Assembly: GCA_963745835.1 (NCBI GenBank)
Contig: CAVUZH010000003.1
Location: forward strand, 1,376,001 to 1,440,000
Length of the DNA: 64,000 bases
From: an uncultured delta proteobacterium
Lineage (GTDB): Bacteria > Desulfobacterota > Binatia > UBA9968
Direction: 5' to 3'
Position numbers and translations under genes: made by a program. Below the pieces are notes generated by a model. The model was not told where the DNA came from and did not search any database. It saw only the letters and a list, made by a program, of their open reading frames with translations. Positions 29,308 through 53,774 of the stretch are shown here, piece by piece. Positions within the stretch are counted from its first letter, which is position 1. Each line of letters begins with the position of its first letter.

Positions 29308-29521
29308 CTTCATGGAGATGGACGGCGCCATTTAAACTCCGGTTACAGTCCCATTCTCAGGGAACTCAAACACGTACTCCTAGATCTCGGAAGATCGTCC
29401 ATTCCTCACCTAAGCTTAGCGCTTGTCGCCCACGGCGCGTATTGTACGTTGAAATCCCCGGCTGATTGCAAAAGCCTCAATCAATTCTGGATTTTGAATT
29501 TTCGTTTTTAAATTTGGTCGA

Positions 29522-30559
29522 TCACCGGATTACCTTATCTGCTCTTGCGAGAACCTCCGGCGGGATGATCACGCCGATCTGCTTCGCGGTCTTTAGATTA
29601 ACGACGAGTTCGAACTTCGTCGGCTGCTCGACCGGCAGCTCGGCCGGTTTGGCACCCTTGAGTATTTTGTCAATCATCGCCGCGACACGCTTGAAGGCTT
29701 CGGTCTCATCGGCCCCGTAGGACATCAACCCACCGTTGTCCACAAAGTCCTCGCGATAATAGATTGCCGGCAGACGATACTTTGCTGCCAGGTCGATGAT
29801 CCGTTTTTGGATGGCGCTTGTTTGAGACAAGCGGTGCCGGGTTACTGAAAGAGCCGTGCTTCCCGCTTTGACCGCCTCTTTGAAGCCGCTCTCGTAGTTT
29901 TCGCTGCTGCCAATCTCCATTGAATGAATTTGCAGCCCAAGTTGCCGCGCAGCTCGCTGGCTTTCGGCCCACTGAGGCTCGCTACTTCCAGAGCTTGGGT
30001 ACCATAAGACAGCGACGCGCGAGAGTTTGGCTATGGATTCCTTGAGTGCTTCCACTCGTTTCCCTGCCAAGACATCCGCCAGGGAATAAAATCCCGTCGT
30101 GTTTCCTCCCGGCCGCGCCACACTGGCAACCAAGCCGCGTGCAACTGGATCGAAAGGAGTATCAGTAAAGACAATCGGGATTGTTTTTGTAGCCTTCTTG
30201 GCGGCCAGACCGTCATTTGGACCGCCCGCAACGATGACATCGACTTTAAGGCGCACCAGCTCATCCGCCAAACCAGGAAGCCGCTCGGGCTTCTCTTCCG
30301 CATAGCGGCGCTCGAAGACAATGTTCTTACCCTCTACGTAACCGAGTTCCCGCAGTTCCCGTCGTAGTGCCTCGATGCCGAATGTACTGGAAGATGATCC
30401 CCCGCTGAGTCTTCCTATACGATAAATTTTTCCCTCTTGCTGCGCGTTCGCATAAGGGCATAGCACAAAGAGCAAACCCATCAGTGCCAGACAATAAACT
30501 TCTCGCCTTTGTGATCTTTCGATCCAGAATCGACAATCCAAAATCGAAAATCGCTTCAC
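29522..30559 (-). CDS. ABC transporter substrate-binding protein (ABC_sub_bind/COG2984), array member 21
   Basis: LGYVEGKN, ARPGGNx[17 protein letters not shown]...[19 protein letters not shown]. Confidence 0.9.
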   Translation of the reverse strand: MKRFSILDCRFWIERSQRREVYCLALMGLLFVLCPYANAQQEGKIYRIGRLSGGSSSSTFGIEALRRELRELGYVEGKNIVFERRYAEEKPERLPGLADELVRLKVDVIVAGGPNDGLAAKKATKTIPIVFTDTPFDPVARGLVASVARPGGNTTGFYSLADVLAGKRVEALKESIAKLSRVAVLWYPSSGSSEPQWAESQRAARQLGLQIHSMEIGSSENYESGFKEAVKAGSTALSVTRHRLSQTSAIQKRIIDLAAKYRLPAIYYREDFVDNGGLMSYGADETEAFKRVAAMIDKILKGAKPAELPVEQPTKFELVVNLKTAKQIGVIIPPEVLARADKVIR

Positions 30560-31560
30560 TTGATCACCTTGTCCGCCCGCGCCAATACGCTAGGCGGAAT
30601 CATCAAACCAATCTGCTTCGCGGTTTTTAAGTTGATCACAAGCTCGAACTTCGTCGGCTGCTCCACGGGAATATCGGCGGGCTTCGCTCCTTTGAGAATT
30701 TTGTCGACGTAAGTGGCGGCGCGTCGATAGAGTTCAGGTACATTCACTCCGTAGGACATCAATCCACCGGAATTTACGAACGCATCCGTCCAATAGATCG
30801 CAGGCGTTTTGGTTGCGATCGCCATTGAAACTAACTGCATCCGGTGACCAGCGAAAAACTGACTCGATATCAGGGTCATGGCGTCTAGGCGCTTTTTCAT
30901 GAGAATCGTGGGCAGTTCTTGGACATCCTTAAGCTCGCGCGCGTTAAGAATTTCCACCTTCACCCTTCTGCCGTGCGTCACTCGCTCGACCTCCTTTAAT
31001 TGCGGAGCGCTAATCGGATCAGACGGGTTAGTAAGCACCCCGATCAGCTTCGCCGAGGGGAAAGTTTCCATTAGAAGTTCTGTGCGCTTGCCGCTCAGCT
31101 CGACATTCATGTTGGTGAGGCCCGTCAGATTTCCGCCGGGATTGGCGAGGCTCGCCACCATTCCGGCACCTAGAGGATCAGCAACTAAGGCAAAAACGAT
31201 CGGCGTTGTCGGCATCGACTTCTTGGCAGCCAGTGCCGCGGGCGTAGAGGATGCTAGAACTACATCCGGTTTGAAGCGATCGATCTCTTCGGCCAGCTCG
31301 GCAAGCCTGCCTGCGCGGCCCTCAGCGTTCCAGAGCTCGATTGTAGCGTTTTGGCCGGCGACGTAGCCGAGACGATTCAGCTCTTCGAAAAAAGACTCCA
31401 TATTCGCGCGTTGTTGATCATAGGCGAAAACTGCTATGCGCAAGATTTTGCCTGGCGCCTGCGCCTGAGCGTAAGCACAAAGGGCAAAGAGCAGAGCGCT
31501 CAGGCAGGTAAGCGCAAAGAACAAAGCCCGAAGCCGAAAAGAAATAATGTCTCTGTTCAT
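30556..31560 (-). CDS. ABC_sub_bind protein, member 20
   Basis: Same motifs, intact. Confidence 0.9.
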   Translation of the reverse strand: MNRDIISFRLRALFFALTCLSALLFALCAYAQAQAPGKILRIAVFAYDQQRANMESFFEELNRLGYVAGQNATIELWNAEGRAGRLAELAEEIDRFKPDVVLASSTPAALAAKKSMPTTPIVFALVADPLGAGMVASLANPGGNLTGLTNMNVELSGKRTELLMETFPSAKLIGVLTNPSDPISAPQLKEVERVTHGRRVKVEILNARELKDVQELPTILMKKRLDAMTLISSQFFAGHRMQLVSMAIATKTPAIYWTDAFVNSGGLMSYGVNVPELYRRAATYVDKILKGAKPADIPVEQPTKFELVINLKTAKQIGLMIPPSVLARADKVIK

Positions 31561-31602
31561 GATCCTTTTACTATGCTGTTGCCTAATGGCTATTACCTGC
31601 TG

Positions 31603-32616
31603 TTATCGAATCACCTTATCCGCTCTGGCCAACACATTCGGCGGAATCGCCAGGCCAACCTGCTTGGCGGCATTTAAGTTTATCGCCAGCTCAAACTTTG
31701 CCGGTTGTTCGACCGGTAAGTCGCCCGGCTTCGCGCCTTTTAAAATCTTGTCGACATAAATAGAGAGGCGCCTGAAAACCTCGAGATCATCGGTTGCATA
31801 CGACATCACGCATCCGGCATCTACGTACTGCCGGGCCTCGCACATCGAAGGCAGTCGATTCTTTATGGCCAGATCTGAAATTTGCCTCATATGCGGCCCG
31901 AGCACGGCATGACTCACCGTAATTAGCGCCTGTACTTTTCTCTGAATCGCTTCTCGAATTGCGCCTGCCAAGTCAGGATTCGGACGGGTCACCTGCAGCG
32001 ATTGGAGCTGTATCTTCAACGCTTCGGCAGTAGGCTCGTAGCTTTGGAACGCGGTTCCTATACCTAGTGCAGTCGGGCGGACCCAAAGAACGCCGACGCG
32101 AGAAATCGATGGGATGATCTCCTTGAGTATCTCCAACCTCTTTCCACTCAGGTCGCGAGTGAGGCGCGCAATCCCGGTGACGTTTCCGCTCGGACGCGCT
32201 AGGTCGTCAACTAAACCGGTGGCGACCGGGTCCTGATTGGTCACCATAACAATCGGGACGTTCTTAGTGGCCTGCTTGGCAGCACGGACTGAGGTTGGAT
32301 CTACGGCTATGAGAATATCGACCTTCAGTTGCAGAAGTTCCTTAACCAGATCGGTAGGCTCGAATTTCCCATCGGAGTGGCGGGACTCGATCACGATGTT
32401 TTTTCCTTCAACGTACCCGAGATCTCGCAACCCATCCTGCAGTGCTTTGAACTGCCGCGGTATGGGGGCGCCGGCGCTTGGCAGATAACCAATCCTTGGA
32501 ATTCTCTCCGGCTGCTGCGCTTCGCTAAACGAGCAAAGCGCAAACAGCATAGTGGCAAGAGTAAAACAAAAAACTTTCTTGTTCTTCGCAAAATCCAAAA
32601 ACGAAAATTGAATCAC
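31603..32616 (-). CDS. ABC_sub_bind protein, member 19
   Basis: Same motifs, intact. Confidence 0.9.
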   Translation of the reverse strand: MIQFSFLDFAKNKKVFCFTLATMLFALCSFSEAQQPERIPRIGYLPSAGAPIPRQFKALQDGLRDLGYVEGKNIVIESRHSDGKFEPTDLVKELLQLKVDILIAVDPTSVRAAKQATKNVPIVMVTNQDPVATGLVDDLARPSGNVTGIARLTRDLSGKRLEILKEIIPSISRVGVLWVRPTALGIGTAFQSYEPTAEALKIQLQSLQVTRPNPDLAGAIREAIQRKVQALITVSHAVLGPHMRQISDLAIKNRLPSMCEARQYVDAGCVMSYATDDLEVFRRLSIYVDKILKGAKPGDLPVEQPAKFELAINLNAAKQVGLAIPPNVLARADKVIR

Positions 32617-33605
32617 TTGATCACCTTGTCCGCTCTCGCCAGCACACGCTGCGGAATAGTCACGCCTATTTGCTTCGCAGTTTTAAGATTAATCGCCAAT
32701 TCAAACTTGCTCGGCTGCTCTATGGGAAGGTCGGCAGGCAGGGCGCCTTTCAGAATCTTATCCACATAGACGGCTACACGACGGTAGCTGTCCGCGAGGT
32801 CTCCCCCGTAATATATCAGCCCGCCGGCCTCTACCGCTTCTCTGTTGTTGTAAATCGATGGCAACCGTCTTCTTATTGCGTAACCGGCGATCCGTTCATA
32901 GTTACCAGAGATTCGCGTCCCGGAGAGTACATAAAGAGCATCCGTGCGCTCCTTGTTAGACGTACCGAATGCTCGCTCGAAACCGTCTGCGTCTGGTACC
33001 TCCCAAGGCTGAACAGTTAATTTCAGCACCCGTGCTGTCTCTGGGAGGATCTCTTTCACCTCGCGTACCTGGGACGTATTGGCCGGATCGTAGAGAACCG
33101 CGACACGGGCAATCTTCGGAACCACTTCTTTGAGTAGCTCCAGACGCTTACCGCCCAGTTCTCTGGCAAAGTTTGTAAGGCCGGTGACGTTCCCACCGGG
33201 TCGGGCAAGGCTTTTAACCAGCCCTGCCTCAACGGGATCGGACCCGCCCATCATAACGATGGGAATGGTATTGGTCGCATTCTTGAGCGCCCGCGCGGGA
33301 TTGTTTCCTCCATCTACTATAACGATATCAACCTTCAGACGCACCAGCTCGGCCGCAAGCTCAGGAAACCGATCGCGCTTCCCCTCCGCGTACCGGTATT
33401 CGAACGCGATGTTCTGTCCTTCTATGTAGCCTAACTCGCGCAGCGCGAGCCGAATTCCCTCAGAATCGGCGGATTCACTATTGGGGGTGCCCGGCATTAA
33501 ATATCCTACTCGGTGAACTTTCTTTGGCTGCTGCGCATCGGCAACATGGACACTGTTCATGGTAAAGACAATCACCAGAAGAACAGTTGCGGAGTTCTTT
33601 TTCAC
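32613..33605 (-). CDS. ABC_sub_bind protein, member 18
   Basis: Same motifs; GTG start overlaps the TGA of an orphan stub. Confidence 0.9.
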   Translation of the reverse strand: MKKNSATVLLVIVFTMNSVHVADAQQPKKVHRVGYLMPGTPNSESADSEGIRLALRELGYIEGQNIAFEYRYAEGKRDRFPELAAELVRLKVDIVIVDGGNNPARALKNATNTIPIVMMGGSDPVEAGLVKSLARPGGNVTGLTNFARELGGKRLELLKEVVPKIARVAVLYDPANTSQVREVKEILPETARVLKLTVQPWEVPDADGFERAFGTSNKERTDALYVLSGTRISGNYERIAGYAIRRRLPSIYNNREAVEAGGLIYYGGDLADSYRRVAVYVDKILKGALPADLPIEQPSKFELAINLKTAKQIGVTIPQRVLARADKVIK

Positions 33606-33696
33606 TTGATCACCTTGTCCGCCCGCACCAGTACGTTCGGCGGAATCGCCGTACGACTTTAGATTTTGGATTTTCGATTTTGGATTGTTCGATCAT
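33602..33696 (-). repeat. 91-bp gene-less unit (heptamer tract plus SBP 3'-end stub)
   Basis: ATGATCGAACAATCCAAAATCGAAAATCCAAAATCTAAAGTCGTACGGCG + ATTCCGCCGAACGTACTGGTGCGGGCGGACAAGGTGATCAAGTGA; near-identical to 52136-52231. Confidence 0.9.
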
Positions 33697-34745
33697 CGGA
33701 TTACCTTATCTGCTCTGGCTAATACAGCTGGTGGGATCGTCACGCCGATCTGTTTGGCAGTTTTTAAGTTGATCACGAGCTCGAATTTAGTGGGCTGTTC
33801 GACCGGGAGATCGGCCGGCTTGGCGCCCTTGAGGATTTTGTCTATGTAAATAGCCGCCCGGCGTTGCAGATCGCCAAGGTTAACACCGTAGCTCATCAGG
33901 CCACCTGCGTTGACAAAGCCTTGTCTTACAAACACTGCCGGCAGCCGGCTTTTTGCGGCGTGATCTGCAACCGATTTCGGATCAACGTTGAATATGGGGC
34001 CGCCGAGCACGAGGATCGCATCAGCTCGAGCGCTACGCGCGTCTCGAAACGCGCGGTCGACTTCTTTCGGATGGCGCACGTCTACATACTGAAGTTGTAC
34101 TCTGAGTGCGGCGGCGGCGCGTTCTGTCTCCTTAAGTCCTTCAGCATCGCCCGGATTGTTTGAAGAACCTAGGACTGCGACATGAGATAGGCCAGGAAGG
34201 ATCTCCTTCAGAAGCTCCAGCCTTTTTCCGCTTACCTCGGGGCGGACTGTGGACAACCCAGTAATATTTCCGCCGGGTCGTGCTAGGCTTGCGATGAAGC
34301 TGCTGGCGACAGGATCGTTATCCTGGAGCATAACAATCGGAATCCTAGTCGTAGCCGCCTTGGCAGCGCGGGTTGCCGTTGAACCGCCGCTTAGAATAAC
34401 GTCGACCTTCATACGAACCAGCTCGGCAGCCATTAGAGATAGCTGATCCGGCTTCCCCTCCGCATGCCGGTACTCAAATGCGATATTCTGCCCTTCGATG
34501 TAGCCTAGCTCACGTAAACCTTCTTTAATCTGCGCAAGACCGCCACCTGTTAAGGAAACGGTACTCGCATACAGGAACCCCAATTGTGGGATTTTTTCCG
34601 CTTGTTGCGCCTGAAGCGGAAGGCAAATCGTCAAGAGCAAACCGCTCAATAAAAGATAAAATACATTGTGCCGTCTTGTTCCAATCCACAATCCAAAGCA
34701 TGTCCTGAGCCATGCCGAAGGATCAAAAATCCAAAATGGGATCAT
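33693..34745 (-). CDS. ABC_sub_bind protein, member 17
   Basis: Intact; leader contains the DPSAWLRTCF insert. Confidence 0.9.
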   Translation of the reverse strand: MIPFWIFDPSAWLRTCFGLWIGTRRHNVFYLLLSGLLLTICLPLQAQQAEKIPQLGFLYASTVSLTGGGLAQIKEGLRELGYIEGQNIAFEYRHAEGKPDQLSLMAAELVRMKVDVILSGGSTATRAAKAATTRIPIVMLQDNDPVASSFIASLARPGGNITGLSTVRPEVSGKRLELLKEILPGLSHVAVLGSSNNPGDAEGLKETERAAAALRVQLQYVDVRHPKEVDRAFRDARSARADAILVLGGPIFNVDPKSVADHAAKSRLPAVFVRQGFVNAGGLMSYGVNLGDLQRRAAIYIDKILKGAKPADLPVEQPTKFELVINLKTAKQIGVTIPPAVLARADKVIR

Positions 34746-34872
34746 TTGATCACCTTATCGGCCCGTGCCAAGACGCTAGGCGGAATCATCAGATCAATTT
34801 GCTTGGCGGCTTTGAGATTGATCACCAGCTCAAATTAGTTGGCTGCTCGACCGGCAAGTCGGCAGGCTTGGA
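34742..34872 (-). pseudogene. Orphan 3' end of an ABC_sub_bind gene
   Basis: [41 protein letters not shown] with no gene body; abuts the hicB upstream region. Confidence 0.9.
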
Positions 34873-34953
34873 CCGGATTACTCCCGTTCTCATTTCACCA
34901 CAGCTTGTGATCACAGGAGCGGCTGATATAGCAATTGTAGCTCTGGAGGAATC

Positions 34954-35386: not shown

Positions 35387-35423
35387 ATTATCCCATTGTA
35401 AGTAAATTTGGCTGTGCCTCTTC

Positions 35424-35565
35424 TCATCTGATCACCTTATCCGCTCGCGCCAACACATTCGGTGGAATCGCCATCCGATTTTAGATTTTGGATTTTGGAT
35501 CCTTCTACGGAGTTTATTCTGAGAGAGCCGAAGGGCTCAGGAAAGATTTTAGATTGTTCGATCAT
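35424..35565 (-). repeat. Gene-less unit plus stub carrying a ~47-bp palindromic insert
   Basis: Same unit as 33602-33696 with CCTTCTACGGAGTTTATTCTGAGAGAGCCGAAGGGCTCAGGAAAG inserted at GAT^TTT. Confidence 0.85.
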
Positions 35566-36641
35566 CGGATCACCTTGTCCGCTCTTGCGAGCACGTTCGG
35601 CGGGATCGTGAGACCGATCTGCTTCGCGGCGTTAAGATTGATCACCAGCTCGAACTTCGTCGGCTGTTCCACCGGGAGTCGGCAGGCTTTGCGCCTTTCA
35701 GAATCTTATCGACATACGTGGCAGCGCGGCGGTATAAGTCAGGCGATGTTCGCCCCGTAATACATAAGGCCACCCGTGTCTGTCCACTGGACGTTTGGGT
35801 ATATGGCTGGCATACGCGTCTGTTCCACCAGCTCCAAAATCGTTTTTCGGTGAGGAGTTAAACCAAGGTTACCTAAACCGGTAATGAGACCGCCAACACG
35901 CTCCTTAACCATGAGGCGGAATGCGCCCTCAAGATCCGGATTGGGAGTTTTTACCTCTACAAGTTGAAGCCTGACTCCTAAGGCCTGGGCCGTTACCTCC
36001 GCAGCCTGGAATCCGGCTCTATTCGGCGAACTGAGCGGTTCATTAAGGAAGACAAAGCGCGCGATCTTCGGCACCGCCTCTTTCAAGAGTTCCAGTCGCT
36101 TTCCAAGCACCTCCGGGGTGAGGTTTGTCAAACCCGTGACGTTTCCCCCCGGACGGGCCAGACTGGCGACGAGGCCGGTCTCAACAGGGTCAGCACCGCT
36201 TGCCATAATAATCGGAATCGTAGTGGTTACCTTCTTGGCGTGACTGGCCGCCGAGTATGACTCCGCAACAATGATTTCAACCGGGAGTCGAACGAGTTCC
36301 TCAGCCAATGCGGGCAGTCGTTCGAGTCTACCGTCAGCGTACCTGTATTCGATGGTGATGTTTTTCCCCTCGATGTAGCCCAATTCCCGCAAACCTCGAT
36401 GGAAAGCCTCAAGGTTCCGCGGCGCAGGTGCACGGGAATCTGACGGATGAAGATCGCGCGACAGAAAGCCTATCCTGAAAGTATTTTTCGGCTGCTGCGC
36501 CATCGCGGACGGACATTGCGCGAAAAGCATCGCGCTAACCGTTAAACAAAAGGCGCTCAATGGGGCTACGTACCAAAGAATACCACTGATCGTGGAAGGA
36601 TCACTTTGCGTTTCACGCGGCTTGCCTTTCGCCTTCTTCAC
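35562..36641 (-). pseudogene. ABC_sub_bind protein, member 16 (frameshifts near 35742 and 35678; may be sequencing errors)
   Basis: ORF 35739..36641 continues in other frames to ARADKVIR*. Confidence 0.75.
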
Positions 36642-37681
36642 TTGATCACCTTGTCCGCCCGCGCCAACACGTTGGGCGGGACAATCAGACCGATTTGCTT
36701 TGCCGTTTTAAGATTGATCACCAGCTCAAACTTCGTCGGCTGTTCGATGGGCAGATTGGCGGGCTTCGTGCCCTTTAAAATCTTATCTACATAAACGGCG
36801 GCGCGCCGGAAACTCTCCGCATCGTTAGCCGCATACGATACGAGACCACCGCTTTCTACAAAATCCGCTCCCGCTGACATTAAAGGTAGCCGGTGCTTTA
36901 TGGCAAGATCCGCAATTTGGGCTCGATAGTTTACGAGCAGCGAAGTCCTAACTGCAATAATCGCGTTCGCGCGCCGTTTGGCCACTGTTTGAAAAGTATC
37001 CTTGAGATTAGAGCTCGCACCGCGTACTTCCAAGGATTCAAGCGCAATTTTCAGTGCATTGGCCGCGTTTTGATAATTCTCCACCGGTGAAGCCGTATCC
37101 GCTTCCCAAAGAAGTCCGACTCGAGAGATACCAGGGACTACCTCCTTCAGCAGCTCAAGCCGTTTTTCACTTAGATCTCGGGTGAGCCGAGTGAGCCCAG
37201 TAATATTTCCACCCGGTCGGGCCAAGCTATCGACCAGCCCAGTTCTCACTGGATCTTCCGTAATTGCCATGACAATGGGAATTGTCCTGGTCGCTCGCTT
37301 GGCCTCGCGGACAACTCGGAAAGTCGGCGAAACAAGGACATCAATATTGCGCTGGACAAGTTCGGCCACGACGCTAGGGATATTGTCGTCCTTCCATTCT
37401 GCGTGGCGATAATCAATGACGATGTTTTTTCCGTCGATGTACCCGAGATTTTGCATCGCGTGACGGAAAGCTGCAAAATTCGGCGAGGAGGTGGAAGGCT
37501 CGCCACCTCCTGTAACATATCCAATCCGTACGTCTTTTGACTGCTGCGCCTCAACGGAAACATCGGTAGGCAGAAAGAAAGCAAGCAGCAAGCAGTTAAA
37601 GACAAATCTTATCGTCTGTGTTAGAAGTTTCGCTACGCTTGTCTTACTGTCAGCTGCTCTCTGCTCACGACCCGTTGTCAT
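36638..37681 (-). CDS. ABC_sub_bind protein, member 15
   Basis: Intact. Confidence 0.9.
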   Translation of the reverse strand: MTTGREQRAADSKTSVAKLLTQTIRFVFNCLLLAFFLPTDVSVEAQQSKDVRIGYVTGGGEPSTSSPNFAAFRHAMQNLGYIDGKNIVIDYRHAEWKDDNIPSVVAELVQRNIDVLVSPTFRVVREAKRATRTIPIVMAITEDPVRTGLVDSLARPGGNITGLTRLTRDLSEKRLELLKEVVPGISRVGLLWEADTASPVENYQNAANALKIALESLEVRGASSNLKDTFQTVAKRRANAIIAVRTSLLVNYRAQIADLAIKHRLPLMSAGADFVESGGLVSYAANDAESFRRAAVYVDKILKGTKPANLPIEQPTKFELVINLKTAKQIGLIVPPNVLARADKVIK

Positions 37682-38682
37682 CGAATCACCTTATCCGCTC
37701 TTGCGAGCACGTTCGGCGGGATCGTGAGACCGATTTGCTTCGCGGCTTTGAGATTAATTCCTAAATCAAACTTATTCGGTCGCTCCACAGGCAGATCCGC
37801 AGGCTTTGAGCCCTTAAGAATCTTGTCGACGTAAGTCGCCGCGCGCCGGTGTAAGTCGGGGACATTGGCGCCGTAGTACATAAGGCCGCCTGCGTCTATC
37901 CATGATGGGGTTGGATATATGGCTGGTATGCGCGTCTGTTCGACCCATTGCAGAATCTTTTTACGGTGACGAGTTACATTGAGAAGACCTGCGCCTGTAA
38001 TGAGAGCGCCAACACGCTCCTTGGCCATGGTTCGGAATGCGCCGTCGATATCCGGATTCGCGGCTTTTACTTCCACCAATTCAAGTGTAACCCCTAATAC
38101 CTGGGCAGCGGCCTGCGCATCCTTAACATTGGACCTGTTGAACGTAGAGTCATCGTCATCGAGGAATGCAAAGCGGGAGACTTTGGGGACGAGTTCTTTC
38201 AATAATTCAAGTCGCTTTCCAAGCAATTCCCCGGAATAGTTCGTCAAGCCTGTGACATTTCCGCCAGGCCGCGGGAGACTGGCGACAAGTCCGCTTTGAA
38301 TTGGATCGCTGCCGCTCCCTATAACAATAGGAATCGTCGAAGTTGCACTTCGGGCGGCTCGGGCTGCTGTGGAATTTGTTGCGAAGATAATGTCAACTTT
38401 GAAACGAACTAGTTCTTCTGCGAGCTCCGGCAGTCTTTCAAACTTTCCTTCGGCGTGTCGGTATTCGATGTAGATGTTTTTCCCCTCCTGGTAGCCTAAC
38501 TGCAGCAAACCTTGACGAAAGGCCTCAAGGTTACGCTGCGCAGGCACAGCGGAGTTCGGCGAAGAAAGTTCATGAGACAAATATCCTAGGGTTGGAACGT
38601 TTCTCGTCTGTTGCGCCACAGTCGTCGAAGTAGTAGCAAGAAGAGAAACTGCAAGTAGCCAAACCGTCCGTAGTCTCCTCAT
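37678..38682 (-). CDS. ABC_sub_bind protein, member 14
   Basis: Intact. Confidence 0.9.
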   Translation of the reverse strand: MRRLRTVWLLAVSLLATTSTTVAQQTRNVPTLGYLSHELSSPNSAVPAQRNLEAFRQGLLQLGYQEGKNIYIEYRHAEGKFERLPELAEELVRFKVDIIFATNSTAARAARSATSTIPIVIGSGSDPIQSGLVASLPRPGGNVTGLTNYSGELLGKRLELLKELVPKVSRFAFLDDDDSTFNRSNVKDAQAAAQVLGVTLELVEVKAANPDIDGAFRTMAKERVGALITGAGLLNVTRHRKKILQWVEQTRIPAIYPTPSWIDAGGLMYYGANVPDLHRRAATYVDKILKGSKPADLPVERPNKFDLGINLKAAKQIGLTIPPNVLARADKVIR

Positions 38683-38723
38683 CTGGTTCTCCCATGCCTG
38701 TGCCGATTAACGTCTGACCATTG

Positions 38724-43846: not shown

Positions 43847-43927
43847 GGCGGAAAGAGCAAAACGAAAACTCGCTTTCTGCTCTTAGTTCTCCTAATCCAA
43901 ATCCAAAATCGAAAATCCAAAATGGGA

Positions 43928-44935: not shown

Positions 44936-46028
44936 CGAATTACCTTGTCGGCCCGCGCCAGCATACTTGGCGGAATTGTCACCCCAATTTGGTTGGCCGT
45001 CATCAGATTGATTGCCAACTCGAATTTGGCGGCTTGCTCGACGGGAAAATCGGCTGGCTTGGCGCCTCTTAGGATTTATCGACGTAGAGTGCCGCGCGTT
45101 TGTAACTCTCGGCATCATTGGATGAATACGCAATCAGGCCGCCGGGTTCTATCCATAAGCCCGAGTCATACATCGACGGCAGTTTATATTTGATAGCATA
45201 GTTCACGATTTGCTTTCGGTGACGATTCAGAAGGGAATTACCTATTGTGATCAGAGCTTTCGCTCGTGTTTGGGCAGCAGATTCAAATGCGGCATCCAGA
45301 TTAGGGTCAGGGCCTCGCACCTCTAGAGACTGCAATTGAATTCTTAACGCCTGAGCCGCAGCCTGGTACTCCCGAAAACTTATTTTTGGTCCCTCCGCGC
45401 TTGAATCCCAAAGGATGGCGACGCGCGCAATCCCGGGAATTAGCTCTGTTAGTAACTCCAGCCGTTTCCCTCCTAACTCCCGGGTGAGGCGGCTAACCCC
45501 AGTGACATTCCCCCCCGGGCGAGCCAAGCTATCGACAATCCCCGTCGCGACTGGATCCTGATTGATGACCATGACGATGGGAATTGTCTTGGTCGCCTGC
45601 TTGGCGCTGCGGATCGCGGGGTCGTCGCCAGAGATAAGCACATCGACTTTGAGTTGCACGAGTTCCGCCACGAGGTTTGGAATCCGGTCGCGCTTGCCCT
45701 CGGCATAGCGAAACTCGATCAGAATATTTTTACCCTCAACGTAACCTAGATCTTCTAGGCCTTGGCGAAACGCCTCGACATTAGGGCCCGGAGGAGAAGG
45801 AACGCCAACCACTCTCAGATAGCCTATCCGTGGAACTTTCGTTGGCTGCTGCGCCTGAGCCACAGCCCCACAAAGGTTAGATGCGAAAACGACTGCGAAG
45901 ATCGCCACCCATCTTAGATTTTGGATTTTAGATTTTGGATTGTTGGCAGAAAGAGATTCGGAGCGGATTAGTTTCGTAACGTCTTTTCTGCGCATTCCAA
46001 AATCCAAAATCGTAAATCCAAAATTCAC
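44932..46028 (-). pseudogene. ABC_sub_bind protein, member 7 (one A missing in an A-run at ~45075; probably a sequencing error)
   Basis: YVDK then ILRGAKP...ARADKVIR* in the next frame. Confidence 0.75.
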
Positions 46029-47054
46029 TTGATCACCTTGTCCGCTCGTGCCAGCAAGTTCGGCGGAATCGTAAGGCTGATCTGCTTGGCGGCTTTGAGA
46101 TTGACCACTAGTTCAACGTCGCCGGCTGCTCTACTGGTAGATCAGCCGGCTTCGCTCCTTTGAGGATTTTGTCGACATAGGTTGCAGCGCGGCGTTGTAA
46201 ATCGGCAAGACTAACCCCATAGCTCATCAGCCCGCCTGCATTCACAAAATTTTCCCTGACATAGACCACTGGCAGCCGGCTTTTTGCTGTGCTGCAAGTT
46301 CTTTTGGCTTGACGTTGAATATCGGACCTCCTAACACAAGAACTGCCTCCGCCCGCTCCGCGCGCGCTTCTCGAAACGCTGCCTCAATATCTTTCACACC
46401 ATGCACGTCCAGATATTGAATCTGCAGTTTGAGTGCGCCGGCAGCGAGTTGTGTCTCCTTGAGTCCTTCGGCGTTGCCGGGGTTGTTCGATGAGCCGAGG
46501 ACCGCTACTCGGGAGAGCCCGGGGACGATTTCTTTCAAAAGTTCCAGCCGCTTTCCGCTTATTTCTGGTCGTAGCGTCGATAAGCCGGTAATGTTTCCGC
46601 CCGGCCGTGCTAGGCTGGCGATAAACCCGCTTCTGACAGGATCGTTATCCTGGAGCATGACAATCGGGATGGTGCTGGTGGCCTCCTTGGCAGCACGAGT
46701 CGCCGTAGAGCCGGCCGTAAGAATAACGTCAACTTTTAGCCGGACCAGCTCATCAGCGAAGGTAGCTAAACGATCTAAGTTTCCGCCCGCCTGTCGCCAC
46801 TCGATGACGATGTTCTTTCCTTCCACATAGTCTAATTCGGCCAAACCTTCTTTGACCGCCGCAGGTCTGCCGCTTTCTCCCGGCCCGGTACTTGCCGCGA
46901 GAAAGCCCACTTTAGGGATTCTTGCGGATTGCTGAGCCTGCGCGATCGTGCAAACACCAAAGAGCAGAAGTGCAAAACAGCAAAGCGCGAAGAGCATAAA
47001 ACGACGCAGAGTGTTCTTGCCGACTTTTGATCTCTGACATTGGATCTGTGTCAC
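46025..47054 (-). pseudogene. ABC_sub_bind protein, member 6 (frameshifts near 46290 and 46115)
   Basis: Close paralogue of member 17; tail KSRLPVVYVRENFVNAGGLMSYG...ARADKVIK* is out of frame. Confidence 0.75.
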
Positions 47055-48046
47055 CTGATCACCCTGTCGGCTCTTGCCAGTACGTTCGGTGGAATTATCA
47101 CGCCAATCTGTTTTGCTGTTTTCAGATTGATCACTAGCTCGAACTTCGTCGGCTGCTCCACCGGTAGCTCGGCAGGCTTTGCGCCTTTGAGAATTTTATC
47201 TACGAAAACTGCAGCACGGGCAGCAAGGACTCGATCGTCCGGCGAATAGGAGATTAGGCTGCCTTCCTCTACATACAGATTGGTCTCGCCCATTGAAGGG
47301 AGCTTGTTCTTGATGGCCAGTTCGGCAATTCGCTTTGTGTAAGGATCGAGCACGATATTCGAAAGAGAGATGAGCGCATCAACACGCTCCTTGGTCGCAG
47401 CCCGAAACGCGCCGTCGAGATCCGGGATGGGTCCTCGTACCGGCAAGGATGCAAGCTTTATCTTCAAAGACGGGGCTGCAGCCTCGTACCGCTTAAAACC
47501 CACAGCGAACCCAGCATCCGACCCGTCCGCATTCCAGAGAAGGCCCACGCGCGACACCGCCGAAATCACTTCTTTGAGCAGTTCTAAACGTTTTTCGCTC
47601 AAGTCTCGGGTCATTCTCGTCAATCCAGTGATATTCCCACCGGGTCGCGCAAGACTATCCACATATCCCGCGGCAACAGGATCCTGAGTTGTCACCATCA
47701 CAATGGGAACTGTCTTCGTGGCCTGCTTGAGCGCTCGCATGACTGGGGGAGTTCCAGAGATTATTACATCGACCTTTAGCTGTATTAGCTCAGACACAAC
47801 ACTCGGAATCCGCGCGCGGTCGCCATGAAGATAGCGGTACTCGACGAGAATGTTTTTCCCCTCGGTGTATCCAAGATCGTGCAGGCTCTGCCGAAATGCC
47901 TCAATGCGAGAGCCGGGATTCTTCGGATCACCGATAGACACATACCCTAACAGCGGAACTCTCTGCGGCTGTTGTGCCGCGGCGGAAAACGTGAGCGACA
48001 ACAGCACTGCAGCCAAGCCGAACTGAATGACTCTGCTCGGTCTCAC
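47051..48046 (-). CDS. ABC_sub_bind protein, member 5
   Basis: Intact. Confidence 0.9.
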   Translation of the reverse strand: MRPSRVIQFGLAAVLLSLTFSAAAQQPQRVPLLGYVSIGDPKNPGSRIEAFRQSLHDLGYTEGKNILVEYRYLHGDRARIPSVVSELIQLKVDVIISGTPPVMRALKQATKTVPIVMVTTQDPVAAGYVDSLARPGGNITGLTRMTRDLSEKRLELLKEVISAVSRVGLLWNADGSDAGFAVGFKRYEAAAPSLKIKLASLPVRGPIPDLDGAFRAATKERVDALISLSNIVLDPYTKRIAELAIKNKLPSMGETNLYVEEGSLISYSPDDRVLAARAAVFVDKILKGAKPAELPVEQPTKFELVINLKTAKQIGVIIPPNVLARADRVIR

Positions 48047-49009
48047 TTGATTACCCGATCGGCTCTGGCTAATACATGTGGTGGGATCGTCAGGCCGATC
48101 TGTTTCGCAGTCTTCAGATTGATCGCCAACTCGAACTTACTCGCCTGCTCGACCGGCAGGTCGGCCGGGTTTGCGCCTTTCAGAATCTTATCGACATAAA
48201 ACGCAGCGCGCCGGTAAATTTCGTCTCGATGAGCATCATAGGATGCGAGGCCGCCATCTTCGACAACTGTCACGCTCTCCGACATCAACGGCAGTCGATG
48301 TTGTAGCGCAAGATCGGCGATTTGCTTTCGGTGAACTGAGAGCGAAGGAACACTAGTTGTGATGATTGCGCTGACCCGCTCCTTTACGGCAACTTGGAAA
48401 AGCTTAGGCAAGTCGGCAGTTGGCGCTTGCACTTCGAGGATTTGAAGCGGCACCTTGAGACTCCGCGCCGCATCCTCATAATCTTTAAATGCCCCAAAGC
48501 CCGAAAGAATTCCGACCCGCGAGAGCCGCGGAATCATCGCGGTCAGTAGTTCCAGCCGTTTGCCGCTCAGGTCTCGGGTAGCTGACGTAAACCCGGTGAT
48601 ATTTCCTCCCGGATGCGCCAGACTATTAACCAGACCAGATGCTACCGGATCCGGAGTAATCGCCATGACAATGGGAATCGTTTTGGTCGCCTGCTTGGCT
48701 TCGCGGATGACGATCGCCTGTGTGGAGAAAATGAATATCGACCTTGAGGCGCACGAGTTCGGCGACAATTCCCGGGACGCGAGACCTATCTCCCTCGTTG
48801 TTGCGATATTCAAACAAAATATTTTTCCCCTCAAAGTAACCGAGCTCTTGCAGCTCTTGCCGGAATATTTTGATTCTCGAACTAGGGTCGGTGGCAATGC
48901 CTGTGACGATTCCTATGCGCGGGATTTTCGTAACCTGCTGCGCCTGAACTGTGGAGCACGTGGCAAAAAACAGAGAGCATAGAGTAAGCGAAATAGTTTT
49001 TTTAGTCAT
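48043..49009 (-). pseudogene. ABC_sub_bind protein, member 4 (+1 frameshift at ~48735; may be a sequencing error)
   Basis: ORFs 48626..49009 and 48043..48897 join at LKVDI/IFSTQ. Confidence 0.75.
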
Positions 49010-49056
49010 ACTCGGCTTCCTGTTTCCGATCTCGGACGTCTGACTTCTGGTCCCTG

Positions 49057-50097
49057 TTATCTAATCACCCTATCCGCCCTTGCCAGGATATGCGGCGAAA
49101 TGGTAGCGCCGATCTGTTTTGCAGTCTTTAAATTGATCACCATTTCGAATTTGGTTGGCTGCTCGACCGGAATGTCGGCTGGTTTGGAGCCTTTCAAGAT
49201 CCTGGCCAGGTAGCGCGCGCCATCAAAACCTTCAATGCTGTAGCCCGGTCCATAAGCCATGAGATTGCCGTTATCAGCGTAATCTGCTCGCGCACATATC
49301 GATACCCAGCGGTAACGCATCGCCAGATCGGCGATCCTCTTCTGATTCGAGTTGGCTAACGGGTTTAACGTCACGGCAAGAGCGCCGCTGTGCGCCTTGG
49401 CTGCTTCTTTGAACGCCTCCTCATACTTATCGGCGCTGCTTACCTGCATTGAATGTAGCTGCAGGCCAAGCTCTCGTGCCGGCACTTGGCTGTCTTGCCA
49501 CTGCGGCGCGGAGCCGGGAGCTTGAGGGTCCCATAGCACGGCAACACGGGAGAGCTTCGGAACGATTTCCTTTAGCAGCTCCAGTCGTTTGCCTGCTAAA
49601 ATGGCCGCCATGTTGGTGATCCCCGTGCTATTCCCTCCGGGTCGCGGCAGGCTATCGACCAGTCCCGCGGTAACAGGATCAGTCACGCCCATGAAAACGT
49701 GCGGAATAGTCTTGCTAACACTGCGAGCGGCTTGAGCGGCATTGGTCGTGACGGTTACAAAAACGTCAGTCTTAAGCCGGACAAGTTCGGCTGCAAGCTC
49801 CGGAAGGCGGTCAAAGTTCCGGTCCTCATGGCGATACTCGATAAAAATGTTCTGCCCCTCGATATAGCCGAAATCCCGTAGCGCCTGCCGGAATGCCTCT
49901 TTGCGCGGGGCATCAGCGGCCGGTGATACCGCGGCCAGATAACCGATGCGCGGAACTTTTTTCGGTTGCTGCGCCTCGGCTTCCGTCCAGCACAGCACGA
50001 ATATGACAACTAGGGCGAGCATCCCTGCCAATTTTGGATTTTGGATTGCCGATTTTCGATTGTCGGAAACAGACTCCGAAGGAACCGCGTTCATCAC
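49057..50097 (-). CDS. ABC_sub_bind protein, member 3
   Basis: Intact; leader SDNRKSAIQNPKL is a translated heptamer tract. Confidence 0.9.
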   Translation of the reverse strand: MMNAVPSESVSDNRKSAIQNPKLAGMLALVVIFVLCWTEAEAQQPKKVPRIGYLAAVSPAADAPRKEAFRQALRDFGYIEGQNIFIEYRHEDRNFDRLPELAAELVRLKTDVFVTVTTNAAQAARSVSKTIPHVFMGVTDPVTAGLVDSLPRPGGNSTGITNMAAILAGKRLELLKEIVPKLSRVAVLWDPQAPGSAPQWQDSQVPARELGLQLHSMQVSSADKYEEAFKEAAKAHSGALAVTLNPLANSNQKRIADLAMRYRWVSICARADYADNGNLMAYGPGYSIEGFDGARYLARILKGSKPADIPVEQPTKFEMVINLKTAKQIGATISPHILARADRVIR

Positions 50098-50149
50098 TTT
50101 GTTCTCCTGCTTTCAACCCAAAAGTCTAAATTCGAAATCCAGAATCGGA

Positions 50150-50190
50150 TTACTTGATTACTCTATCGGCTCTTGCCAGCAGGTTGGCTG
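50150..50190 (-). repeat. Orphan SBP 3'-end stub downstream of the nuclease
   Basis: GCCAACCTGCTGGCAAGAGCCGATAGAGTAATCAAGTAA = [12 protein letters not shown], followed by a heptamer tract. Confidence 0.85.
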
Positions 50191-50250
50191 CAACGTCGAC
50201 GTTTGCTTCGCAATCCTTCGCGCTCCAGCAATAGCTTTGCCGTAGCCACA

Positions 50251-51024
50251 TTACTTGAAAATATTATTCAGCAACCACTCCAGCCTCATTCCCGCCTGAG
50301 CCAGCCGTCGTCTGACTATCATGAGAGCGGTTGCCACGTATTCGTCTGACAATTCCATGGATTCTCCAACGGTATAGGCATCGGACCTCGATAAACGAAA
50401 TGATTCGTCAGTCCACGTTTTCGGCTCGCCAGACTGCCATTCAGAGCGTTGCTTCGGTGTAATGCTCTGGTCCAATTTCTTGGCTAGTTCCTCGGCGTTG
50501 CCTTCTTCCATGTCGACGACGTTGAAATCCCAGAACAGATGGAGGTTCTTCGTCTGTCCTCTATAACTCACGGTAATTTCGGTTCCACCTCTATCTTCTC
50601 GCCTACCTGCATGTAGAGGCTGATGCATATCATTTACTAGATGGGCCACGTACCGGAGAGCAATCAGTCGCACATTGATCGGCACCTTAACGTCAGCGAT
50701 AATCGAGGTAAACCAATTTAAAGCCTCAACCATGCAATTTCTTGCTTTACAGTCTCGTTCTTGATCGTAGCCGGCGGCATCATCGGGAATGCTGACGTGA
50801 TGCAGCCGATCGAACTCTGTTATTCGCCTACCTTCCCTGTCAGGCCACACAGCTGCATCGGCCAGTGTCGTGCCATCAGGAAGAAGCTTCCTCACCTCTT
50901 CTCGTGCCTGCTCCGTGAGCTGCGTATCGGCTAAGATAGCTACAATTCGATGGCCCTTGTCGCCCCAGCCGTAGGCTACGTCGCGCAATGGAAGCATGAA
51001 CGCGAATGCAGCAGTAGCCGACAA
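50251..51024 (-). CDS. S1/P1 nuclease
   Basis: Signal then WGDKGH, AVWPD, HLVNDMHQPLH, DRGG and NLHLFWD Zn-binding motifs. Confidence 0.92.
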   Translation of the reverse strand: MSATAAFAFMLPLRDVAYGWGDKGHRIVAILADTQLTEQAREEVRKLLPDGTTLADAAVWPDREGRRITEFDRLHHVSIPDDAAGYDQERDCKARNCMVEALNWFTSIIADVKVPINVRLIALRYVAHLVNDMHQPLHAGRREDRGGTEITVSYRGQTKNLHLFWDFNVVDMEEGNAEELAKKLDQSITPKQRSEWQSGEPKTWTDESFRLSRSDAYTVGESMELSDEYVATALMIVRRRLAQAGMRLEWLLNNIFK

Positions 51025-51047
51025 GGATCAGCTTGTAGATAAACAGC

Positions 51048-51119
51048 TCACCTTGGGCGGAGAATCGCCGTACGACTTTCAGTAGATTTTGCGATTTTTG
51101 ATTTTGGATGGCAGATCAT
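51048..51119 (-). repeat. Degenerate gene-less unit with a truncated stub
   Basis: ATGATCTGCCATCCAAAATCAAAAATCGCAAAATC...GTCGTACGGCGATTCTCCGCCCAAGGTGA. Confidence 0.7.
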
Positions 51120-52083
51120 CGGATTACTTTATCTGCTCTCGCCAGCACATTCGGCGGTATCGTCACGCCGATCTGCTTTGCCGTCTTTAAGTTGATCACT
51201 ATCTCGAACTTCGTCGGTTGTTCCACTGGCATTTCGCTCGGTTTAGCGCCTCTTAGAATCTTGTCTACGTAGACAGCAGCGCGTCTAAAGAGCGCCGGAT
51301 CATCAGCTGAATACGAGATGAGCCCTCCCGCCTCTACGCGAGCGGCCACTTCATGCATAGTCGGCAGTCGGTTTTTGATGGCAAATTGTAGGATCTGCTT
51401 CGTGAAAGGGTTCAGTGTGCGACTTGCAACCGGCATAAGCCCGTTCACTCGTGCTCTCACAGCAGCTCGAAATGCGCCCTCCAGATCGGGTTTAGAACCG
51501 TTTACCTCGATGGATTCGAGCGAAATCTTCAGCAAGCGTGCCGCAGTCTAATAGTCTCGGAAACTCGATGACCCGCGGACCGCAATGATTCCTAAATGTG
51601 ACAGGCTCGGAACCGCCTCCTTGAAAATTCCAGTCGTTTTCCACTTAACTCATGGGTAAGTCTGGCGAGTCCCGTGATATTTCCGCCTGGGCGTGCGAAA
51701 CTATCGATTATGCCTTTCTCCACCGGATCAAAAGAAGCCACCATAACTATGGGGATCGTTTTCGTTGCTTTCTTGGCTTCAACGATTGCTCCTGCACTCG
51801 AACTAACCAGCACATCGACATTAAGTTTTATGAGTTCCTCGACGAAGCCCGAGACTCGATCCGGATTTGTCCCGGGATAGCGATATTCAACGTGGATGTT
51901 TTCTCCTTCGATGTAGCCTAAATCTCGGAGCCCGCGCCGGAAGGACTCGACGAACACGCCGGGATTATTGATGCTGCCACTGCTCGCCGCATATCCAACT
52001 CGTGGTATTCTCGCTTGCTGCTCGGCGTTGAGAAGAGAAACATTGGTCAGAAAAAGGAACCAGAAAACAATCTTGCTAATCAT
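51116..52083 (-). pseudogene. ABC_sub_bind protein, member 2 (frameshift at ~51626 plus in-frame TAG at 51548-51550)
   Basis: ORFs 51592..52083 and 51116..51535; the nonsense codon suggests real decay. Confidence 0.8.
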
Positions 52084-52135
52084 TGCTTCCGTTCCATTTA
52101 AGCTGGTCAGTACTTACCATTACGCTGCTCGACCA

Positions 52136-52231
52136 TTATTTGATCACCTTATCCGCACGTCGCCAGCACATTCGGCGGAATCGCCGTACGATTTTAGATT
52201 TTGGATTTTCGATTTTGGATTGTTCGATCAT
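52136..52231 (-). repeat. 92-bp gene-less unit plus stub
   Basis: Translates as MIEQSKIENPKSKIVRRFRRMCWRRADKVIK*; near-identical to 33602-33696. Confidence 0.9.
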
Positions 52232-53209
52232 CGGATTACTTTGTCAGCTCTACCCAAAACATTGGGCGGAATGGCTACGCCGATCTGCTTGGCCGCTTTC
52301 AGATTAATCAGTAGTTCGAATCTCATGGGAAGTTCCACGGGTAAGTCTGCAGGCTTGGCTCCTTTAATAATCTTGTCGACATAAATTCCCGCACGACGGT
52401 AGAGGTCGCCGTAATTAACCCCATAGCCCATCAGCCCGCCGTCTTCGATAAACTGCCCCGTTTGATACATCGCCGGCAACCGAAGATTTGGTGGCGAGAT
52501 CGACGATTCGTTTTGAATTCAACGTCATCAGCGCGCCCCCCGGTATAACTAGAGCGTCCGGCTGAAGTTGCTTTAAGACGTTCGCGGCGCCCTCGATATC
52601 TCCTGTGCTTCTGACCTCGTGAGGCCGGAGCTGTAGCCCAAGAGCCTTGGCGCCCTTTTTTGCTCCGTCGAGAACCTGCGCTGCAAGCTGGCCAGCTTCG
52701 GGATTCCACAGCATCGCGACCATGGTGATTTTCGGGAACGCCTCCTTGAGCAGATCCAAACGCTTACCCATCATTTCAGGGCCAGCGCTGCTTGATAGTC
52801 CGGTAACGTTTCCGCCTGGGTATGCCAGGCTCTTGACCAAGCCGGTGGCAACAGGATCAAATCCGATGCCTACGATAGGCGTTCGGCTATTTGCCTGAAG
52901 AACAGCGCGAGTGGCGGCAGGCGTAGTTGTAAGAATAACATCAAGATTGAGCGCGACGAGTTCCGTCGCAAGCATCGCCAGTCTGTCCGAACTCCGCTCG
53001 GCATAGCGGTACTCGATAGAAATGTTCTTGCCGTCAACGTAGCCTAAATCTCGCAATCCCTGGTGAAATGATTCCAGATGAGGTTGATCCCTCGACCCGA
53101 AGAACAGAAATCCCAAGCGAGGAATCTTCGCCGGATGCTGCGCCTGGGCCACCTCCCCCCAGGCCGTCAATGTCAGAACGACTGCAAGGAGGCCGACAAT
53201 GTGTTTCAT
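52228..53209 (-). pseudogene. ABC_sub_bind protein, member 1 (+1 frameshift at ~52486; may be a sequencing error)
   Basis: ORFs 52415..53209 and 52228..52479; AGGAGG RBS. Confidence 0.75.
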
Positions 53210-53774
53210 GCCCCTCCTATTTTAGATTTTCGATTTTAGATTGCCGATGGGACGGAAAACTTCCATTTCGCTTCTGATGAGTCTTATACAAGTTCAATGA
53301 ACCGTAATGCCACTAGTTTAGTGCGTTGTTTGAATAAGATTTCGTCCGGCGTGTTCCCGATCTAAACTCGGCAATCGAAAAATTGAAAATTGCTTGATCA
53401 TGGCCATTGCCCCTACCGCAACGGATATGCCACAAAACAAACTCTATGAAAATAATAATTTAGGAACCGCCGAAGTGGTGAGAGGTGGCCGTTTGACTAC
53501 AGGGGAGTATCAGATTTGCTGCGCTACAAGGATCACATCCTCGAGACTGCCTGTCGAGACTGCCTGTGGTCCGATGGAGTGCTCCAACCTTATGAAACAC
53601 GGTCGCGAGATGGCCATGGTCTTAGTCGATCACGCAGCTTGCCTACAGGGCACTCTCACTCCTCACAAAACCCCCTCATAGAATTAAGGCCAGCCGTCGG
53701 GAAACGTTTCTGATGCCGCGGTAAAATCTTGAGGTATCTAGTTATGTGCCGTGCGCCGGCGACGTTGTTGCCTT

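Follow-up and report, generated by a model that had tools for sequence, protein, structure and literature searches.

Introduction

Binding proteins of the PF04392 (ABC_sub_bind) family are usually encoded in an operon together with permease and ATPase genes. In the orphan modules of contact-dependent growth inhibition (CDI)/Rhs systems, and in homology-facilitated illegitimate recombination, variable parts or foreign DNA are swapped in through the homology of a short, conserved piece of coding sequence. Expansions of orphan binding proteins are described, as far as the available text of PMC5994714 goes, for the TTT/Bug family of Rhodoplanes, Bordetella, and Cupriavidus, in which dozens to hundreds of paralogues are accompanied by few membrane components. 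The genes lie partly in tandem arrays, the largest of nine, for which duplication and some horizontal transfer are given as the explanation, and many of the binding proteins are proposed there to share one transporter or to act as sensors. Here we describe an array of 21 PF04392 genes in a 64,000-nucleotide (nt) stretch, hereafter the window, from an uncultured bacterium of the Binatia. The source genome (G000) comprises 7.28 Mb in 25 contigs, with a completeness of 97.1% and a contamination of 9.33%, and the window corresponds to C3:1376001-1440000. The array occupies the minus strand at 29522-53209, contains 13 intact and 8 broken genes in the profile search, and its members share a conserved 3' end, here called the tail.

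An initial annotation of the window had taken this tail for the recombination anchor of a candidate new, integron-like cassette system. Our analysis shows instead a family-wide protein C-terminus, bodiless copies of which are decaying, and no integron integrase above the cut-off. The locus is probably a lineage-specific expansion of orphan PF04392 genes, in which birth-and-death evolution is combined with unequal homologous recombination that resolves in the shared 3' block.

Results

The array consists of orphan binding-protein genes

A profile built from 12 intact copies was run over all stop-to-stop frames of the genome. It placed 21 gene bodies at 29525-53200, all on the minus strand, as expected from the 21 co-oriented, diverged paralogues over ~24 kb of the initial annotation. 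Thirteen bodies were single open frames spanning the full profile and the other eight lay in at least two frames or pieces (Table 1); every long open frame within 29.5-53.2 kb was on the minus strand. The 13 intact paralogues were 42-57% identical to the first one. Two intact copies scored 154.8 and 169.3 bits with Pfam PF04392 (cut-off 25.9), and gene 11 resembled the solved protein 3LKV over residues 45-338 (E 3.1e-32), and also 6HNI and 3LFT, with E 3e-32 to 1.5e-24 across the three. Hydrophobic N-terminal stretches ending in A-Q-Q, which are putative export signals, were recognised by eye in the array proteins.

In G000, 133 PF04392 matches were found, mostly in co-oriented arrays on contigs C3, C19 (380-426 kb), C22 (230-252 kb), C24, and C14. 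PF02653 permeases gave nine matches, of which only C23:3337-4203 and C3:1294024-1295728 were close to a PF04392 gene. None of the nine was near any array or within the window, the nearest being ~81 kb off, which agrees with the earlier statement that the window lacks a permease (ATPase genes were not searched for). Since PF04392 and PF02653 are paired only at C23 and at 1.29 Mb of C3, the array genes are regarded as orphans. The C23 permease locus likely encodes the family's canonical transporter, with which the orphans are candidates to be partnered in common. At C23:3337-7328, a 663-aa frame with two PF04392 domains adjoins the PF02653 permease.

The PF04392 family (E 1e-30 or better) was present in all 12 same-family genomes searched (1-68 matches each; one of them, G012, is unpublished), and gave no match in the four genomes of f3, a different family of the same order. 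With gene 11 as query, relatives at 46-64% identity were obtained from metagenome-assembled genomes (MAGs) labelled Binatia, Rokubacteria, Delta- and Betaproteobacteria, Acidobacteria, and others, and from Variovorax isolates. When these were scanned with a degenerate tail pattern, many MAG loci showed co-oriented arrays with ~1-kb spacing and at most 14 tails per locus, and the Variovorax isolates showed single copies only.

The shared tail is a conserved protein C-terminus

A sequence-only model of 63 nt (R1), comprising the last 60 nt and the stop codon, matched 26 places in the array. These were the 21 gene tails and five bodiless tails at 33602, 34742, 35424, 50151, and 52137 (the last two are listed from 50150 and 52136 in Table 1). 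With a protein motif, 22 tails were detected in the window, 22 of 22 on the minus strand. When the tail, already called conserved in the initial annotation, was scanned genome-wide with R1, 116 matches were obtained at E <1e-4, and all 116 were inside PF04392 gene clusters or fragments. The association between tail and array is far beyond chance.

An excess of nucleotide conservation in the tail, whose absence the initial annotation had named as counting against its reading, was not observed. In hand counts on alignments, none of the 20 sense-codon third positions was conserved at 90% or more across the 21 gene tails, and none of 49 was over the last 49 codons with the relics included. Every invariant nucleotide column of the gene tails was a first or second codon position. 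Codon choice was correspondingly free, with Arg written as AGA, CGG, CGA, or AGG, Leu as CTC, TTG, CTG, or TTA, and nearly all synonyms in use. At the protein level, 25 of the 42 invariant columns among the 13 intact paralogues fell in the last 50 residues. The last 45 residues were 67-84% identical in 14 loci labelled Binatia, Variovorax, Rokubacteria, Acidobacteria, Myxococcaceae, Alphaproteobacteria, Verrucomicrobiia, and others. Furthermore, the tail aligned with the C-terminus of the Vibrio protein 3LKV, including its IPxxVLARA segment. The shared tail is thus a family-wide conserved protein C-terminus, and its strong conservation plausibly reflects a surface that would dock to a shared transporter.

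The tail end GATAAGGTGATCAARTGA (GAT AAG GTG ATC AAR TGA) holds a Shine-Dalgarno-like AAGGTGA. The genes are packed head to tail, and for 11 open reading frames (ORFs) of the array the start lies in an RTGA shared with the tail or relic before it. Because of these 11 overlapping starts, the last codons may double as the start region of the next gene, to which they would supply a Shine-Dalgarno-like site and the start codon.

Bodiless tails are decaying relics

The bodiless tails named in the initial annotation were all recovered with R1, and its truncated piece at 51048 was read in the sequence; the R1 model gave no match there in the array scan. All details of the initial description of the array that were compared held true. 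The relics at 33602, 35424, 51048, and 52136 are each preceded by a full gene tail and a 45-90-nt A-rich spacer of AAAATCN heptamers. The unrelated cargo that had been reported beside tails was identified as an S1/P1 nuclease gene (PF02265) and a HicA gene (PF07927, E 4.1e-18). The latter lies, together with an overlapping upstream ORF of 81 aa that has no Pfam match at E <=0.01, on the strand opposite to the array. This putative HicAB pair replaces the remainder of the gene whose fragment is found at 34742, and the nuclease gene sits between the truncated piece at 51048 and the decayed relic at 50150. Toxin-antitoxin-type genes inverted relative to their array were seen both here (34954-35386, HicA) and in genome G001 (locus L083, 1186-1572, PIN).

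Two relics could be compared with G004, the closest relative. That at 52136 has a counterpart at the corresponding G004 site, from which it differs at 11 of 46 nt, compared with ~94% identity for gene 1. The relic 3' of the nuclease gene is about two-thirds identical to its G004 counterpart, compared with, by a rough count, ~90% for the nuclease frame. Since this divergence outpaces that of the surrounding genes, the bodiless tails are decaying relics rather than maintained recombination sites. Perhaps they persist for a time by carrying the translation start or ribosome-binding site of the next gene.

Gene content turns over at 3' ends

That units are gained, lost, and reordered, as the initial annotation had supposed, was borne out by same-genus genomes, which differ in content and order between the same flanks. 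The array flanks are 91-95% identical between G000 and G004. From the right flank, collinearity with G004 extends over genes 1 and 2, after which two additional binding-protein genes precede the nuclease gene in G004. On the left, the terminal gene of G004 is a different one, and next to it lies the gene 19 orthologue. In G001, the terminal gene differs again and is accompanied by a PIN toxin gene and an orthologue of gene 13, and G006 has a homologous left flank without an array beside it. In addition, the C22 locus, again between the same flanks, holds a ~30-kb array in G000 and a ~11.5-kb array of 8 genes in G006, of which only a 4.4-kb block is orthologous. The G004 contigs also hold genes without a match above ~72-78% in G000.

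Five alignments fixed a breakpoint ~24 to ~150 nt before the stop of a binding-protein gene, and a further breakpoint, upstream of the nuclease gene, lay elsewhere. Two lay 24 nt before a stop codon: that of terminal gene 21, where flank orthology with G004 and G001 reaches ~24 nt into the tail, and that of gene 2, inside the tail in the G004 alignment. The C22 breakpoint between G000 and G006 lay ~45 nt before the stop, and the second boundary of that block could not be placed. In gene 19, identity with G004 fell from ~97% to ~77% at ~133 nt before the stop, and in gene 13 a less sharp breakpoint, relative to G001, lay ~150 nt before it. In BLAST searches, the other paralogues matched the G004 array contigs over ~150-215 nt only, at 75-86% identity and always at their 3' ends. 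Because local alignments run through the conserved 3' block, breakpoints from BLAST coordinates alone were left out of the count. The counts are small. The 3' end behaves as a hot spot of recombination, probably owing to its conservation in the protein and not to any role as a dedicated site.

No dedicated cassette system is evident

The layout of the locus invites comparison with integrons, since the shared orientation of 21 genes, the units without a gene, the inversion of toxin-antitoxin-type genes, and the variation in content among relatives would all fit a site-specific system in which a recombinase encoded elsewhere uses the tail as its site and moves units of gene plus tail. No integron integrase scored above the TIGR02249 cut-off in G000 (best 86 bits vs 265). 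Of the 13 tyrosine recombinases (PF00589) in G000, none was in the window or on C19 or C22, and the nearest was ~140 kb away (serine recombinases and transposases were not searched); one match lay ~3 kb from the small C14 cluster. An inverted-repeat scan found 23 inverted pairs in 24 kb and no recurring boundary palindrome among them (the attC model of IntegronFinder was not applied), and inverted repeats with heptamer arms were confined to one gene junction (genes 6/7) and the upstream leader. Rfam gave no match in 29000-54000 at E <=1. The absence of IntI and of a canonical attC, noted in the initial annotation, was accordingly reproduced, and nothing in these searches points to a dedicated cassette system. 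Moreover, every synonymous site of the tail varies, the breakpoints spread from -24 to -150 nt without a single crossover point, and all cassettes except two come from one family. A dedicated integron-like system is therefore very improbable.

On the left border of the array, a repeated gene (28237-28653) was considered as a recombinase and proved to be a response-regulator receiver domain (PF00072) with paralogues near other arrays; the left-edge genes encode this receiver-domain protein and TadE-like proteins.

The heptamer element and the tail/spacer/tail module

In the window, AAAATCN repeats occur at 33647-33692, 35469-35561, 45911-46024, 51066-51115, 52182-52227, and 53210-53250, in both orientations. 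Genome-wide there were 48 triple-heptamer matches, 36 of them in or beside PF04392 arrays; a control pattern gave 4. Among 86 relative loci, heptamers flanked tails in 10, with the labels Binatia, delta, Blastocatellia, and Verrucomicrobia. Within over-extended ORFs, the heptamers read as ILDFRFWI-like peptides on one strand and as NPKSKIQN-like peptides on the other. The stretch before gene 1 differs from that of G004 at 2 of ~47 positions. Its place right next to AGGAGG and the ATG, together with this near identity to G004, suggests a 5' leader. The heptamer element is either a conserved mRNA leader of the gene family or a recombination junction.

A module made of a tail, a heptamer spacer, and a second tail aligns across lineages and shows distinct codon choices. 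In the first tail, Arg is always AGA and the end is ATC or ATT followed by CGN TGA, with ATCCGATGA in 6 of 10 copies; in the second tail, Arg is CGR in 9 of 10. An ATG or GTG stands 0-2 codons before the IPP of the second tail in 6 of the 10 copies, and because it stands just ahead of IPP, a mini-ORF of 15-16 codons is possible. A heptamer spacer joined to a second tail was also considered as a mobile element spread through the genome; this was rejected, since the pattern occurred four times, each time inside a binding-protein array.

Several observations weigh against unequal homologous recombination as the source of the breakpoints. One breakpoint, upstream of the nuclease gene, is outside any tail. 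The boundaries repeat at -45 (the start of IPP) and at -24 (between Ala and Arg), which is more regular than simple homologous exchange would lead one to expect, and paralogous tails, only ~80% identical and with only some pairs sharing ~40-nt runs, are poor RecA substrates. Most of the compared genomes are fragmented short-read MAGs, with long contigs on both sides only in the G000/G006 comparison, and tail breakpoints in MAGs could be mimicked because contigs may mis-join at the conserved tail. Furthermore, the tail/spacer/tail module, which could not be derived from such recombination, occurs in at least 10 places in G000 by R1 (33602-33745, 35424-35610, and 52136-52275 in the window). It aligns with loci L004, L019, L043, L048, L063, L080, and L083, of MAGs labelled Binatia and delta- or betaproteobacterial. 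In two same-genus genomes, a toxin-antitoxin-type gene directly follows it.

These features would be accommodated if the 3' end, perhaps through a CCGCC/GGCGG hairpin, formed a junction module together with the heptamer element in an anchor-mediated cassette pool that needs no integrase. Genes and foreign cargo would then change places there, within and between genomes, by template switching or by homology-facilitated illegitimate recombination with one-sided homologous anchoring, and the arrays would serve whole populations as a pool of interchangeable binding-protein genes. The -45 breakpoint lies just 5' of the first hairpin arm and the -24 breakpoint in the loop, just 5' of the second arm, and in at least seven places tail-only copies begin at or just before IPP (R1 start positions 14-19). 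The sharing of the module between phylum-level labels, the concentration of heptamers at PF04392 arrays, the tail pieces on the flanks of the cargo, and the G004 genes without a close match in G000 point the same way. However, the consensus fold of the module contained only a 9-pair hairpin, with a covariation term of 0.35, that is, no covariation support. The relics and one spacer diverge faster than the surrounding genes, neither a recombinase nor an Rfam match emerged from the searches made, and the heptamer stretch before gene 1 resembles a conserved 5' leader, not a junction. In addition, the idea rests on few breakpoints, mostly from MAGs. We consider such a cassette pool unlikely. It is likewise doubtful that the PF04392 arrays of soil bacteria from several phyla form one shared, exchangeable gene pool with the junction module as a protein-coding counterpart of attC.

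Of the recombination anchor that the initial annotation had seen in the 3' end, the position stands, with the five breakpoints in the last ~24-150 nt, but a dedicated system is unsupported. The hot spot is in line with the RecA-dependent alternative named in that annotation.

The array is most unlikely to be an assembly artefact

With the contamination reported above, and with three single-base frameshifts private to the assembly, it was conceivable that dispersed paralogues had been collapsed or chained into an array. Short contigs of rhizosphere and soil metagenomes from three studies were 95-99% alike to parts of the array and bridged the junctions at 34939-35664, 47211-48168, 48380-49132, and 50040-50424. 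These include the junction of HicA, relic, spacer, and gene 16 tail (bridged by contigs of two other studies) and that of nuclease, relic, and gene 3. In addition, G004 is collinear over 52231-53798 and also has the nuclease gene and its relic, similar arrays occur in dozens of independent assemblies, and the identity among the paralogues is too low for erroneous chaining. An artefact is thus extremely unlikely, the least probable of the explanations weighed here.

The frameshifts at 39815 (gene 12), 48734 (gene 4), and 52489 (gene 1) are single extra bases lacking in contigs of three runs, and are either errors of the G000 assembly or recent mutations. The number of pseudogenes in this assembly may be an overestimate. 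Contig joints between distant places of the array were considered as rearrangements and dismissed, since their sides were 20-29 nt long (one of 92 nt, 42698->42894), as expected from cross-matching of paralogues. The public-run contigs are uninformative on circular units and on the parts of the array that they do not cover.

Features of the array and its surroundings

The features of the array are listed in Table 1. To its right, a 359-aa ORF (55802-56881) has a weak match to TctC, a tripartite tricarboxylate receptor (E 8.3e-4, 19.4 bits vs a cut-off of 27), and may be a member of another orphan binding-protein family. Far to its left, the region ~14260-15230 shows 64-68% identity to dozens of places in G000 and relatives, including three copies at ~9800-13400, and the whole of 9800-15230 looks like a second tandem expanded gene family.

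Table 1. Features of the PF04392 array in the order of transcription. Positions are those of the window; for broken genes, the profile-matched body, which lies in at least two frames or pieces, is given under remarks.
Feature	Position	Strand	Basis	Remarks
A-rich heptamer leader with AGGAGG	53210..53250	-	heptamer match C3:1429218	directly 5' of gene 1 ATG
Gene 1, first in array	52228..53209	-	profile	1-nt insertion near 52489; body 52231-53200 (pieces 52478-53200 and 52231-52485); G004 orthologue intact, 326 aa
Heptamer spacer, then tail-only relic	52182-52227, 52136-52181	-	R1 positions 14-62	relic with 1-nt insertion
Gene 2	51116..52083	-	profile	1-nt deletion and TAG nonsense codon relative to G004; body 51119-52071; G004 orthologue intact, 322 aa
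Heptamer spacer, then truncated tail piece	51048..51115	-	read in sequence	tail piece 51048-51065
S1/P1 nuclease gene, unrelated cargo	50251..51024	-	PF02265, E 2.4e-57	orthologue within G004 array
Decayed tail relic	50150..50212	-	R1 positions 26-62	downstream of nuclease gene
Gene 3	49057..50097	-	profile	intact
Gene 4	48043..49009	-	profile	frameshift near 48734; body 48046-49012
Gene 5	47051..48046	-	profile	intact
Gene 6	46025..47054	-	profile	three pieces; body 46028-47003
Inverted heptamer-arm pair	45911..46024	.		between genes 6 and 7; arms 24-32 nt, 81-92% complementary
Gene 7	44932..46028	-	profile	frameshifted; body 44935-45932
Gene 8	43928..44914	-	profile	intact
Gene 9	42896..43876	-	profile	intact
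Gene 10	41843..42717	-	profile	5' part decayed; body 41846-42717
Gene 11	40818..41846	-	profile	intact
Gene 12	39766..40821	-	profile; R1	frameshift at 39815, tail kept (R1 match 39766-39829); body 39766-40755
Gene 13	38724..39758	-	profile	intact; G001 orthologue with other 3' end and other neighbour
Gene 14	37678..38682	-	profile	intact
Gene 15	36638..37681	-	profile	intact
Gene 16	35562..36641	-	profile	three pieces; body 35565-36557
Heptamer spacer, then 45-nt relic	35424..35561	-	R1	relic 35424-35468
HicB-like ORF and HicA toxin gene	34954-35199, 35159-35386	+	HicA PF07927	inverted relative to array
Binding-protein 3' fragment, ~129 nt	34742..34870	-	profile, R1	1-nt deletion
Gene 17	33693..34745	-	profile	intact
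Heptamer spacer, then 45-nt relic	33602..33692	-	R1	relic 33602-33646, stop overlapping GTG start of gene 18
Gene 18	32613..33605	-	profile	intact
Gene 19	31603..32616	-	profile	intact
Gene 20	30556..31560	-	profile	intact
Gene 21, last in array	29522..30559	-	profile	intact
Heptamer-like A-rich stretch	29462..29521	-		after last stop, at array end; conserved in G004 and G001

Discussion

On the reading of a lineage-specific orphan expansion, the locus would be one of at least five tandem arrays of type I periplasmic binding proteins related to 3LKV, 3LFT, and 6HNI, whose members may all use the one or two canonical importers linked to PF04392 at other sites of the genome. Selection on the C-terminal ~50 residues, which vary least across the whole family, would leave, as a by-product, similarity in the 3' 150-210 nt. 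No other block is common to all copies, so that gene conversion and unequal homologous recombination, whether among copies or among strains, would tend to resolve there, and gain, loss, and exchange could affect whole genes at a time. Deletions and insertions, such as those of the putative HicAB pair and the nuclease gene, would leave 3' relics that later decay. In this scheme the dependence on RecA, the sharing of a transporter, and a role of the tail in translation start are presumed from the sequence.

If this holds, the array is an unusually large and clear case of a soil bacterium renewing ~70 or more orphan binding proteins, in which selection on the C-terminus creates, as a side effect, a recombination place for gene-sized units. 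This would bear on how breadth of nutrient sensing and uptake evolves in uncultivated soil lineages. It also calls for caution in genome scans, as a repeated 3' motif, co-oriented genes, relics, and toxin-antitoxin inserts may together mimic an integron. The tail/heptamer/tail module and the array-specific heptamer element merit focused study.

Comparison with known systems

The array proteins share full-length similarity with PF04392/TrpX-type proteins (3LKV, 3LFT, and 6HNI), including the C-terminal IPxxVLARA; unlike in a canonical ABC importer operon, their genes have no adjoining PF02653 permease. With integron arrays the locus has in common the co-oriented genes, a repeated 3' boundary element, toxin-antitoxin-type genes, and content that differs among close relatives. 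However, no IntI or attC-like palindromes were found here, the repeat is coding sequence conserved at the protein level only, and nearly all units belong to one family and have their own putative signal peptides. The combination of one homologous and one illegitimate side, as in CDI/Rhs modules and illegitimate recombination, may by analogy fit the insertion of the nuclease gene; unlike in CDI/Rhs, the conserved stretch, as far as the sequence can be read, stands here at the 3' end of complete genes and without toxin-immunity logic.

Among the papers listed on PF04392/ABC_sub_bind, judged by title and abstract beginning, and among those listed on binding-protein expansion in Binatia, no published description of PF04392 arrays was found. 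The closest parallel is given by the TTT/Bug expansions which, as far as the available text of PMC5994714 allows a comparison, likewise combine many paralogues, few membrane partners, and tandem arrays, and, as here, are also found in relatives. They differ in that their family is PF03401 and not PF04392, that their arrays reach at most nine genes compared with 21 here and more on C19, and that 3'-end breakpoints, relics, and a heptamer repeat are features of the present locus. By analogy, the proposal made there, that many binding proteins share a transporter or act as sensors, may apply to the PF04392 array too. The locus fits best among the lineage-specific orphan binding-protein expansions already known, here of the PF04392 family and in unusually long arrays.

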